Sequence record: KP085586
Length of the DNA stretch: 50,109 nt
Reading direction: 5' to 3' (one strand)
DNA from: Shigella phage pSf-2
Made by a program: the position numbers and the translations under genes. The notes under the pieces were generated by a model, which was not told the origin of the DNA, searched no databases, and worked only from the letters and a program-made list of their open reading frames with translations. Below, piece after piece: positions 2,214-38,273 of this stretch; the first letter of the stretch is position 1, and each line of letters begins with the position of its first letter.

Positions 2214-3355
2214 CCTGTCATTTCTGGACGGTAGATGAATCGACCTATCTCACCAAATTGCTTGTCGTAAACGATTACCGCCGCCTGACGATATGAGCGC
2301 CACCCGCCGCGCGCGGCGTATGCATCCTTCGCTCCTAACTGACCGTGAACCTCATCGATACCTAACGAGTGTTCAGTGATTGTCTGATGATGCCAGTGAC
2401 CGCTATGAGTATACACATACTTGCTCTCTCCGAAGTCTGCACGGAAGTCTGCCGCCATCGCTGCAAGTCGCGTGTCTGCCTTTTTCATAGTGTGCCCGTG
2501 AGTGTATCCCAATAAGGTGTTTCCCCATCGAGTCTTATGCAGAATCATAGGGCTAACGTCAACGAATACTCGCGGCTCGTCTTCATAATATGCCGACATT
2601 GCAGCACGTAGCCAAATCATCCCGGCCTGGTCGTGGTTCCCTTCAATAATCTGAACCTCGACTTCTTTGTGTTTCATAAGCATTTTGTCGATAGCGCGAC
2701 GCACAGAACGGATCGCAACATGCACCAATTTTGCGTATCGTGAATCCTGATCCAGAACGTGACCGCTTGCCGGGGTAACAGCATCAAGACCGTCCGAGTG
2801 AAGGAAGTCACCGCCAATTAACAGAACAGCCTTCTCTGCGTTAGGGGCAATATCGATCGCGTAATTGAAGAAGTCGCCAAGCACTTTTTCAGCTACGTCG
2901 GTAGAGTAGTTCTCTCCGCATTCATGCTTGTGAGCAAGCGCACCAATATGAAGATCGAATACCGGATAGAGTGCCAGCTTACCAATCTCTGTCGTAAGCC
3001 CTTGCGAGGTTAGTAGCTCGGTTGGCTTTGCTCGCGGCAGGTCTTCACAGAATGCAATACGCGCCGCTTCCATCATTGCCGCAATCTTCTCACGGTCCTG
3101 ATCGGTTTTTACCCAGCGCACTACCTCGGTCCCATCGCCGCGAATCATCGTCGACGTGCCTTTTACCATGAATCCCTCTGGCACGTTTTTAGCAACATGC
3201 TCGTTACCGTGAAAATGACCTTCTTTTGCCAGCTTTGCATGGCGCGCTTCAACAGTGCGAATGTGCATACCGTATTTTTCCGCGATTTCGCGAAGTGTTA
3301 GGCCGCTCATGCGCTCTTCAATAAGTTGCTCGGTGGTGATTTTAGCTTGTGACAT
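2204..3355 (-). CDS. HTH domain fused to calcineurin-like metallophosphoesterase
   Basis: N-terminal HTH (LTLREIAEKYGMHIRTV); phosphoesterase motifs FDLHIG, GGDFLHSDG, EGNHD, GYTHGH, HSGHWHH. Confidence 0.75.
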   Translation of the reverse strand: MSQAKITTEQLIEERMSGLTLREIAEKYGMHIRTVEARHAKLAKEGHFHGNEHVAKNVPEGFMVKGTSTMIRGDGTEVVRWVKTDQDREKIAAMMEAARIAFCEDLPRAKPTELLTSQGLTTEIGKLALYPVFDLHIGALAHKHECGENYSTDVAEKVLGDFFNYAIDIAPNAEKAVLLIGGDFLHSDGLDAVTPASGHVLDQDSRYAKLVHVAIRSVRRAIDKMLMKHKEVEVQIIEGNHDQAGMIWLRAAMSAYYEDEPRVFVDVSPMILHKTRWGNTLLGYTHGHTMKKADTRLAAMAADFRADFGESKYVYTHSGHWHHQTITEHSLGIDEVHGQLGAKDAYAARGGWRSYRQAAVIVYDKQFGEIGRFIYRPEMTGSH

Positions 3356-4443: not shown

Positions 4444-5153
4444 ACTTTCCTTACTTTTGCGCGCTTGTTTTTAACCGAAGGGCAAATGCTTGTGATTGGG
4501 ATATAGTGAGTCTGTTGAACCTCACCCTCTTTCAGTTCGCGCATAATGAAAATTACCGAACCTTTGTTATTACCATCAACGGCCTTCCCGGTTTCACCTG
4601 ATATGAACGCCAGGCGACCGGATCGGGCGTACTCGTTCCCGTCGATATCCTCCGTCAAATCCGCTTCAATCCAGATAATCTCAGCCGCGTGCTGTCGCGC
4701 CTCAGTAAACCACGCTGTAGAATTATCGGCAGGCAACAGAATATCAATCTGGTTGTTGTGCTCCATTTGCTCGATCGCCTTCTTGACGAATATATCAGGT
4801 CGACTATAAGGAGGATTTAACCACACATGCTTATTTTTACCCCACCAACGTTTTAAGCAGTTTGTTTCCTGAGAATAGAACTTCTCGCAAACTTTATTTT
4901 CTTCACTTGCCGCAGCGTCGAGATCATATTTTCCATAGCGCCCCTCAAGGTATGCAATAACCTCTCGTGGAGTTGACCATAAATCACGAACTGCGTCAGG
5001 GGTATTTGTTCCCTTGTATCGACGCCCTGAAATCTCTTTGCAGGTTGGCGTTTTTAGCGCCTGATAATAACAGCCTGATGCTATTGCTTCGCGAGTGAAT
5101 GAGCAACCAGTATCTGCAAAGTCGATGGTTTCAATATCATTGAAGTCTTTCAT
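4440..5153 (-). CDS. DNA N6-adenine methyltransferase (Dam-like)
   Basis: NPPY catalytic motif (VWLNPPYSRPDIF); size and position as phage Dam. Confidence 0.8.
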   Translation of the reverse strand: MKDFNDIETIDFADTGCSFTREAIASGCYYQALKTPTCKEISGRRYKGTNTPDAVRDLWSTPREVIAYLEGRYGKYDLDAAASEENKVCEKFYSQETNCLKRWWGKNKHVWLNPPYSRPDIFVKKAIEQMEHNNQIDILLPADNSTAWFTEARQHAAEIIWIEADLTEDIDGNEYARSGRLAFISGETGKAVDGNNKGSVIFIMRELKEGEVQQTHYIPITSICPSVKNKRAKVRKV

Positions 5154-36986: not shown

Positions 36987-37044
36987 TTCGATTTTCTCTC
37001 TTCGTTGTCGATGAGGTAACTATATCAAATCACCCCACCGACGT

Positions 37045-37062
37045 TTTAGCAATTCGTGCTAT
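37045..37062 (-). promoter_or_regulatory. 18-bp dyad motif copy (tttagcaattcgtgctat)
   Basis: Overlaps TAG stop of kinase gene; minus strand: 22 nt then tatagt (37019-37024). Confidence 0.7.
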
Positions 37063-37631
37063 TTGTTGATGAACGTGGCGGCTATGTGCTGAGCGGTAAT
37101 TTCTGGATGACCTTCGACAGAAAAGAAGTCACACTCATGATAACCGTTGACACCGATCATATCGTCAAGATAGATATAGTCGCGGCTGTCGTTGTCAAAG
37201 TTGCAACCGTTGCGATGGATTCGACACAGCTTGACCTGGATGTCACCTTCAATCATCTGCAAGATCTCGTCTTTGAATCCACCGTCAGTAAATACCGAAA
37301 GTGAATGCGACTCTTTCACCTTGCTTTCCGCTCGCATACCGAAGAAGCGATTTCCGAACTGCGGCTTGATGACCTCCTCGCTAATCCAGATCATAAACTG
37401 GCGCGGGCTTTTACCGTTCAGGATTGATGCTGGCTCTTCTTTATATCGACGGTCCTCATACAAGAACATGAAATACTCGTAGTTAGCTTCACCCAGGATT
37501 GCCCGGGCAATCTCAAACATTGGCGCTTTGAAGCTGCGTAGCGCTACATGATCGTAAGTGTCAGCCAGGATGCATCCGATAGTGTCCTTTCCTGCGCCAG
37601 GCGCGCCGTTTAAAATGATAGCTGTTTTCAT
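37059..37631 (-). CDS. P-loop kinase (dNMP kinase / polynucleotide kinase-like)
   Basis: N-terminal Walker A MKTAIILNGAPGAGKDT resembling T4 dNMP kinase / Pnk kinase domain. Confidence 0.6.
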   Translation of the reverse strand: MKTAIILNGAPGAGKDTIGCILADTYDHVALRSFKAPMFEIARAILGEANYEYFMFLYEDRRYKEEPASILNGKSPRQFMIWISEEVIKPQFGNRFFGMRAESKVKESHSLSVFTDGGFKDEILQMIEGDIQVKLCRIHRNGCNFDNDSRDYIYLDDMIGVNGYHECDFFSVEGHPEITAQHIAATFINK

Positions 37632-37632
37632 G

Positions 37633-37743
37633 TTAGCATCTCCCTAAAAATAATTTTGCCATATTGATGATAGTGTGATTGATGATTAACAGGATGATAA
37701 CCGTCAATACCGGATGTGCTGCAATAAATTCGTACAGGTTCAT
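37633..37743 (-). CDS. small hydrophobic protein (36 aa, not in ORF track)
   Basis: ATGA overlap with HAD gene stop, TAA 1 nt before kinase ATG; TM segment PVLTVIILLII. Confidence 0.3.
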   Translation of the reverse strand: MNLYEFIAAHPVLTVIILLIINHTIINMAKLFLGRC

Positions 37744-38273
37744 TCATCTACCCCGTGAGATTTTAAATGATTGTGAACGTTATCGCCATAGTCAACTACA
37801 GCGTAAGTGGTTATCCCAAGCGATCGGAATAATGGAATAATTTGCGGCGAGTCATCCCAGGCCGCCAGAATGTTCTCAATACCGATAGCGCGCACCGCCT
37901 CCTCTTTCATCACCGTATCTTTCCGGTTATCGGTGTGCGGACGCATAATCAGGTAATCATATCGCGCACCGTAGCGCTTTAACCATAACTTTGATTCGTG
38001 ACGCACCTCATCACTACGTCCGGTTAAGATAATGACGTGATAACCCGCAGCAAATAATGAGTTCATCACCTCAATAGTGCTCTGAATAGGATCGTCATGA
38101 TTTGCTGCACGGTTAAATTCAGACCAACTTTCCGTAAGGTGCAAATCATTTGTCGGTAGCAAGTGGAGGCGCTTTGAGCCATCGCTAAGCGTTCCGTCAA
38201 AGTCAAAGATTGCTACGCGGCGCGCGCCGAGAAACAGGTTGATTGTCTGGCCCCAAATTGTGATTTTATCCAT
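37740..38273 (-). CDS. HAD-superfamily phosphatase (Pnk 3'-phosphatase / 5'-nucleotidase-like)
   Basis: DxDGT motif FDFDGTL near N-terminus; HAD-like spacing of later Asp residues. Confidence 0.6.
   Translation of the reverse strand: MDKITIWGQTINLFLGARRVAIFDFDGTLSDGSKRLHLLPTNDLHLTESWSEFNRAANHDDPIQSTIEVMNSLFAAGYHVIILTGRSDEVRHESKLWLKRYGARYDYLIMRPHTDNRKDTVMKEEAVRAIGIENILAAWDDSPQIIPLFRSLGITTYAVVDYGDNVHNHLKSHGVDE

Follow-up and report, generated by a model that had tools for sequence, protein, structure and literature searches.

A Pnkp-type phosphatase gene linked to a gp1-type deoxynucleoside monophosphate kinase gene in Shigella phage pSf-2: a probable nucleotide-salvage module

Shigella phage pSf-2 (KP085586) encodes a stand-alone HAD phosphatase of the type found in T4 polynucleotide kinase-phosphatase (Pnkp), followed by a deoxynucleoside monophosphate kinase (DNK) of the T4 gp1 type, and the two genes are linked in several families of phages. 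We propose that this operon of a dNMP kinase and a Pnkp-clade phosphatase is a nucleotide-salvage module, in which the phosphatase would act on 3'-phosphates and would be coupled to a nuclease; the probability that we give to this reading is about 0.6. Most likely, the operon supplies building blocks for DNA and does not serve the repair of cut RNA. The whole 50,109-nucleotide stretch of DNA that was analysed is called the window in the following.

The transcription unit and its surroundings

The segment 36000-39600 was compared by megablast and matched 115 phage records with 80-95% identity. All of these were T1-like siphoviruses of Escherichia, Shigella and Klebsiella that belong to the Drexlerviridae, mainly to Tunavirus. 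Judged from these matches, the window corresponds to essentially an entire T1-like genome (Drexlerviridae, Tunavirus). The gene order was the same in the annotated relatives phiL and SA30RD, and the pair sits among small early genes upstream of the terminase. The ORF listing returned the three minus-strand reading frames of the preliminary description where it had placed them, and the order of phosphatase and then kinase is, as it had noticed, the reverse of that in T4 Pnkp (Table 1).

Four genes are tightly packed in this region. The 81-aa ORF and the HAD gene share 1 nt, at the stop codon of the former and the start of the latter; the HAD stop in turn runs into the start of the 36-aa ORF in the sequence ATGA, and the kinase ATG, with a GGGAG Shine-Dalgarno sequence ahead of it, lies 1 nt past the stop of the 36-aa ORF. 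The hairpin downstream of the kinase has no U-tract and was not called by a simple or consensus terminator scan. In phage SA30RD, terminators are annotated at the equivalent sites flanking the four genes, including the hairpin site after the kinase. The hairpin is probably where the transcription unit ends. The 81-aa ORF, the HAD gene, the 36-aa ORF and the kinase gene form one compact four-gene transcription unit.

Table 1. Positions of the phosphatase and kinase genes and of associated features in the window
Feature	Position	Strand	Remarks
ORF, 81 aa	38518..38273	-	PHROG 29229; first gene of the tightly packed four-gene unit
HAD (DxDxT) phosphatase, stand-alone, 177 aa	38273..37740	-	T4 Pnkp phosphatase clade; homologue of T1p63 of T1 and of Rao1 gp57
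Hydrophobic ORF, single transmembrane-like, 36 aa	37743..37633	-	between the two enzymes
Deoxynucleoside monophosphate kinase (DNK), 190 aa	37631..37059	-	T4 gp1 / PHROG 139 family; homologue of T1p62 of T1 and of Rao1 gp58 (R1DNK)
15-bp hairpin directly 3' of the kinase stop	37007..37042	-	RNA fold -26.1 kcal/mol, z = -5.0 vs shuffles
PHROG 704 'DNA repair exonuclease' (calcineurin-like metallophosphoesterase)	2219..3355	-	tblastn with Rao1 gp56: 65.5% identity, E 1e-173

The 36-aa hydrophobic peptide (MNLYEFIAAHPVLTVIILLIINHTIINMAKLFLGRC), which had been put forward as possibly interposed between the two enzymes, is conserved in the Tunavirus relatives. There, 12 of its variable codons showed only synonymous changes and 3 changed the amino acid, which corresponds to a pN/pS of about 0.09 from five sequences only. 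The ORF is also annotated as CDS17 in phage Sfin-1 (PMC6714547). Phages with overlapping HAD and kinase genes do not have it. We conclude that the 36-aa ORF is a real, dispensable and lineage-specific insert and not a component of the enzyme pair.

The two enzyme genes are 111 nt apart in Tunavirus and 486 nt apart in T1 itself. Several Drexlerviridae genera have unrelated small ORFs between them that take up 0.7-2.2 kb, which speaks against a tight coupling. The intergenic slot is an insertion hotspot.

In T1 and two close relatives (L005/L003/L007, 4514-5001), an ORF of about 150 aa for a homing endonuclease of the HNH/AP2 type fills the gap and replaces the 36-aa ORF. In the distant relative L016 (about 4890-5001), the small hydrophobic ORF appears to be split by a 2-nt difference (MTEFYAFASA / HPVLTFF...VAKVIKGVK), which is either a sequencing error or gene decay. 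In other Drexlerviridae genera (L017-L047), a variable island with 3-8 small ORFs separates the HAD gene from the kinase gene. One recurrent product of this island, for example in L041 (4605-4790) and L045 (4423-4608), is a membrane protein (MIWLLVFLVVFFYISGLF...FKW) that has about 60 aa and is unrelated to the 36-aa ORF.

Family assignment of the phosphatase and the kinase

The 177-aa protein contains ...VAIFDFDGTLSDG..., including the HAD motif FDFDGTL that had been noticed before, and its matches to Pfam and PHROG profiles exclude a chance ORF. It scored 62.6 bits with the Pfam family PF25109 HAD_PNKP, far above the curated gathering threshold of 27.6, and covered the profile positions 3-141 of 143. 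The match to PHROG 415 had an E value of 1.4e-66. A phmmer search of the PDB found Capnocytophaga Pnkp1 (1e-8) and T4 Pnkp. When the profile was aligned with T4 PseT, a probability of 97.5% and an E value of 6.6e-12 were obtained over 136 columns, which span the whole phosphatase domain.

The catalytic residues were then mapped by alignment columns. D24, D26 and T28 of the window protein align with D165, D167 and T169 of T4 Pnkp, R35 with R176, T84 and R86 with S211 and R213, D119 with D254, K123 with K258, and D140 and D141 with D277 and D278. In the family alignment, each mapped residue is either invariant or conserved to at least 90%. We take R176, R213, D254 and D277 of T4 Pnkp to be functional residues from the mutational literature. 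The roles of D165, D167, S211, K258 and D278 have been described (PMC3592404). The catalytic set of the DxDxT acylphosphatase domain of T4 Pnkp is fully kept in the window HAD: the nucleophile, the acid-base residue, the phosphate-binding Ser/Thr and Lys and the Mg-binding Asp. The C-terminal phosphatase of T4 Pnkp (PseT) and Capnocytophaga Pnkp1 (4XRP), which share the DxDxT HAD fold, were the best structural and sequence matches. By sequence, fold and catalytic residues, the protein is a phosphatase of the T4 Pnkp type.

There are clear differences to T4 Pnkp. The window HAD stands alone, without a Pnk-type kinase domain and without a ligase partner, and its partner kinase belongs to a family other than Pnk and is encoded downstream, whereas the kinase of T4 Pnkp lies upstream of the phosphatase. 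Since the protein is entirely a phosphatase and has no kinase domain, the usual database label 'polynucleotide kinase' comes from the wrong half of Pnkp and is a misnomer for this HAD-only protein. Two parts of the window HAD are absent from T4: an extra, highly conserved segment that follows motif I and has a length of about 16 residues (HRLHLLPTxDLHLTESWSEFN), and a C-terminal tail that is conserved but disordered and has the sequence HLKSHGV.

The residues 36-55 and 165-177 are near-invariant in the family, yet they were modelled with low confidence (pLDDT about 37-75). The segment after motif I and the HLKSHGV tail might serve to dock a partner protein or the substrate. In some HAD orthologues (L004, L008, L011, L014 at about 4817-4890, L018, L051 and L082), the C-terminus is extended by about 25 residues with the pattern CxH...CxxC (e.g. 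VCNHEPSEPLPPFGEKICIKCKELLK), which resemble a small zinc-binding tail; the window HAD is without this extension. The records of the Campylobacter phages A112a and C4 contained T1-like HAD and kinase sequence with about 70% identity. This is unexpected for a Campylobacter host and may reflect contamination or mislabelling.

The 190-aa kinase begins with MKTAIILNGAPGAGKDT. The P-loop kinase that the preliminary description had seen here is real, as it matches PHROG 139 'deoxynucleoside monophosphate kinase' with an E value of 1.5e-46. T4 gp1 matches PHROG 139 too, over the same profile span. No Pfam family was found above threshold, and searches with NCBIfam and PADLOC yielded nothing useful. 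Since searches of the PDB with the single sequence and with the profile reached only P-loop-level matches, the family was set by the fold and by PHROG. The structure model had a pLDDT of 95.6, and its top structural relatives were T4 gp1 and phosphomevalonate kinase. Both the window kinase and T4 gp1 have the GKD variant of the P-loop, and the kinase thus belongs to PHROG 139 by sequence membership, by its gp1-like fold and by its P-loop. A direct hhalign comparison of the kinase family with the single T4 gp1 sequence was moderately convincing, with 75% probability in the N-terminal half, and the identity of the window kinase to T4 gp1 is only about 13%. The alignment of the kinase family with T4 PseT was limited to 27 P-loop columns. 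We conclude that the kinase is of the gp1 type and not of the Pnk type.

A characterised homologue is present in phage Rao1 (PQ221054.1), which DNA similarity singled out in the phage collection. Over the full length, the window kinase and Rao1 gp58 are 42% identical (E 1e-46), with K15 at the same position. The window kinase shares its family, fold, length and GKD P-loop, with the catalytic K15, with the group of Rao1 gp58 and T4 gp1 (PDB 1DEK). Rao1 gp58, named R1DNK, phosphorylates dAMP, dGMP, dCMP and dTMP, and its effect is abolished by the substitution K15A (bioRxiv 10.1101/2024.12.20.629578). T4 gp1 has a narrower specificity, given as dGMP, dTMP and hmdCMP in a database record note. 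R1DNK is the trigger that enables Kongming to make dITP, and the DNK of the Drexlerviridae phage KarlJaspers triggers Kongming too (bioRxiv 10.1101/2024.12.20.629578). KarlJaspers is a Hanrivervirus, and the homology of its kinase was deduced via the genus-mate Henu8, which has a 47%-identical kinase homologue. Because of the homology to Rao1 gp58 and the triggering of Kongming by the KarlJaspers DNK, we assign the window protein as a predicted dNMP kinase with high confidence. Its predicted activity, the ATP-dependent conversion of 5'-dNMPs to dNDPs, is supported by homology to a characterised enzyme, namely by the 42% identity to gp58.

Another homologue of the dNMP kinases, gp34 of phiEco32 (L088, 2689-3582), has about 100 extra N-terminal residues (PHROG 26149). 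It has no HAD neighbour and adjoins a 5'-3' exonuclease.

Linkage of the two genes and their neighbours

Loci were retrieved with the kinase as the query, and in 75 of the resulting 82 the HAD gene was found upstream on the same strand. The same order of HAD and kinase was observed in Drexlerviridae, Guernseyvirinae, Autographiviridae and Rao1. Stop and start codons of the two genes overlap in Webervirus-like phages, in Kagunavirus K1ind1 and in the Autographiviridae phage Ahp1. Both enzymes have many homologues on phage contigs of about 50 kb.

Three fusion proteins were found (P0216, P0349 and P0230), in all of which HAD_PNKP forms the N-terminal part and the gp1-type kinase the C-terminal part. 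Fusions of 403 and 461 aa came from an exhaustive profile search and one of 413 aa from a follow-up. They were found via a protein database, and none was detected in IMG/VR. On phage contigs from four samples, P0216 and P0349 were each confirmed to be encoded by one uninterrupted ORF. Two of the fusions have diverged to 37% identity, yet they keep the linker. Next to the genes of the 403- and 413-aa fusions, a PHROG 704 gene follows on the contig. From the conserved synteny, the stop/start overlaps and the natural fusions in the same order, we conclude that the HAD and kinase genes are functionally linked.

In the window, the PHROG 704 gene and the pair are widely separated (Table 1). In Rao1, the consecutive genes gp56, gp57 and gp58 encode the PHROG 704 'DNA repair exonuclease', the orthologous PHROG 415 HAD and, directly downstream, the DNK. 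In K1ind1 the pair follows a PHROG 704 gene, and in Ahp1 it follows a PHROG 221 metallophosphoesterase gene. The authors of the KanT1 paper noted that a 'PNK' and a 'dNMP kinase' adjoin an exonuclease in some Drexlerviridae and suggested a role in nucleotide supply (PMC13164509).

Proposed pathway and alternative explanations

In the proposed salvage pathway, the broad-specificity DNK would convert 5'-dNMPs to dNDPs, which the host Ndk would convert to dNTPs for phage replication. Since the host does not use dAMP as a precursor of dATP (bioRxiv 10.1101/2024.12.20.629578), the dNMPs for the kinase probably come from the breakdown of DNA. The HAD phosphatase would act in the same pathway by stripping 3'-phosphates off DNA ends or off 3'-phosphorylated deoxynucleotides. 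The removal of the 3'-phosphate would let nuclease digestion go on, and 5'-dNMP products usable by the kinase would be formed. The PHROG 704 metallophosphoesterase, a neighbour of the pair in many phages, would be the nuclease partner. The pathway is dispensable in Rao1: deletion of R1DNK moderately lowered dATP and had no fitness cost in the laboratory (bioRxiv 10.1101/2024.12.20.629578).

A farther-reaching version of this proposal, which we hold to be possible but rather unlikely, is that the Pnkp-type HAD, the gp1-type kinase and PHROG 704 are a new three-enzyme machine across phage families, sometimes fused. Such a machine would either make dNDPs from 3'-phosphorylated DNA breakdown products or heal ends as a non-orthologous analogue of Pnkp, and the label 'polynucleotide kinase' would hide a new activity.

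The preliminary description had also considered scavenging by a dNMP kinase with a 5'-nucleotidase. This came closer to our results than its other suggestion. An alternative that we regard as unlikely builds on the 5'-nucleotidase: the HAD protein would be a 5'-deoxynucleotidase like Dmp of phage T5, which balances or sanitises the kinase pool, for example by destroying dIMP or dUMP, or counters the triggering of Kongming by the DNK. T5 Dmp, the anti-Kongming deoxynucleoside 5'-monophosphatase, is a phage HAD protein with DxDxT (D22) and the conserved segment after motif I of the window HAD family, and it likewise has a DNK in the same genome. DNKs often accompany homologues of Dmp, which block Kongming (bioRxiv 10.1101/2024.12.20.629578). 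The resemblance of the window HAD to T5 Dmp, a 5'-dNMP phosphatase, indicates that the regiospecificity varies within the clade. However, the hhalign match of the two is restricted to the N-terminal 81 columns (70% probability, E 4e-5) and is much weaker than that to T4 Pnkp described above. T5 Dmp is expressed separately and ahead of the DNK, unlike the window HAD, and a general dNMP phosphatase that is cotranslated or fused with a dNMP kinase would lead to a futile cycle. The Rao1 data also disfavour a general 5'-nucleotidase. Although Rao1 encodes next to its DNK the orthologous gp57 (58% identical to the window HAD), the phage is fully sensitive to Kongming, its dAMP goes up in the course of infection and the addition of T5 Dmp rescues it (bioRxiv 10.1101/2024.12.20.629578). 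Unlike T5 Dmp, the Rao1 orthologue appears neither to deplete dAMP nor to protect from Kongming.

Quite improbable, in our estimate, is that the pair works as a non-orthologous Pnkp analogue that heals ends. Here, the HAD would remove 3'- or 2',3'-cyclic phosphates, the kinase would be recruited to 5'-OH ends, and a host ligase would seal the ends or decay of the RNase E type would be stimulated. The preliminary description had pictured a T4 Pnkp split into two genes in reversed order. What stands of this is the phosphatase, which is nearest to Pnkp1 and T4 Pnkp with all catalytic residues kept, and the linkage of the genes. A phosphatase followed by a P-loop kinase, also in fusions, matches the logic of Pnkp. 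In mammalian PNKP, the HAD phosphatase likewise precedes the P-loop kinase, in the same order as in the genes and fusions here; its kinase, of the Pnk type with an Asp as the general base, works on the 5'-OH ends of DNA. The CxH...CxxC tail of some HAD orthologues could bind nucleic acid, and elsewhere, in K1ind1 and Ahp1, DNA-processing enzymes are neighbours.

The kinase half of the comparison did not hold, and what the preliminary description had named as a refutation, a restriction to free nucleotides or top structural matches outside the expected families, applies to the kinase. The kinase is of the gp1 type, and its similarity to T4 Pnk is restricted to the P-loop. Both gp1 and phosphomevalonate kinase, its top structural relatives, use a phosphate group and not a hydroxyl as the acceptor. 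The general-base Asp and the Arg contacts of a Pnk-type domain for 5'-OH polynucleotides were not found in the window kinase, and from the alignment the general-base position seems to have no conserved acidic residue. In place of a kinase and a phosphatase on one polypeptide with a cognate ligase, there are two genes with the 36-aa ORF between them. As the preliminary description had remarked, no ligase partner is apparent: tblastn with T4 RnlA, the sole ligase query, found none in the window, and none is annotated in the relative phiL. RNA end healing would also be of no help given that E. coli RtcB joins unhealed RNA ends directly. The idea of an RNA or DNA end-healing module is thus weakened by the family of the kinase, by the work of the Rao1 homologue on free dNMPs and by the ligase search. 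A retron Eco2 paper that names Drexlerviridae and PNK turned out to be irrelevant, PNK being a reagent there.

Least probable is that the HAD and kinase are functionally independent neighbours in the early cluster whose adjacency reflects expression timing only: the lineage-varied inserts between them (the 0.7-2.2 kb islands, the HNH endonuclease and the 36-aa ORF), the gp1-type kinases without the HAD in T4 and phiEco32 and the Pnkp-type HAD without this kinase in T4 would fit, but the order kept across four phage groups, the stop/start overlaps in several of them and the three fusions, two of which share a linker at 37% identity, argue against it.

Roles in anti-signalling (CBASS, Thoeris, type III CRISPR), in NAD+ salvage and in the reversal of tRNA 3' pyrophosphorylation by CapRel-type toxins were also considered and found no support here.

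The HAD and kinase genes are common in phages, with annotations in hundreds of genomes, and a homologue of the kinase has been characterised. A correction of the 'polynucleotide kinase' label would touch hundreds of Drexlerviridae and related genomes that are used in phage therapy work. The kinase makes the phage a likely target of Kongming, which hijacks the phage DNK for its dITP alarm signal. The conserved association, now and then as a fusion, between the Pnkp-clade phosphatase, the dNMP kinase and the metallophosphoesterase suggests an unstudied step of recycling from DNA to nucleotides in small lytic phages.
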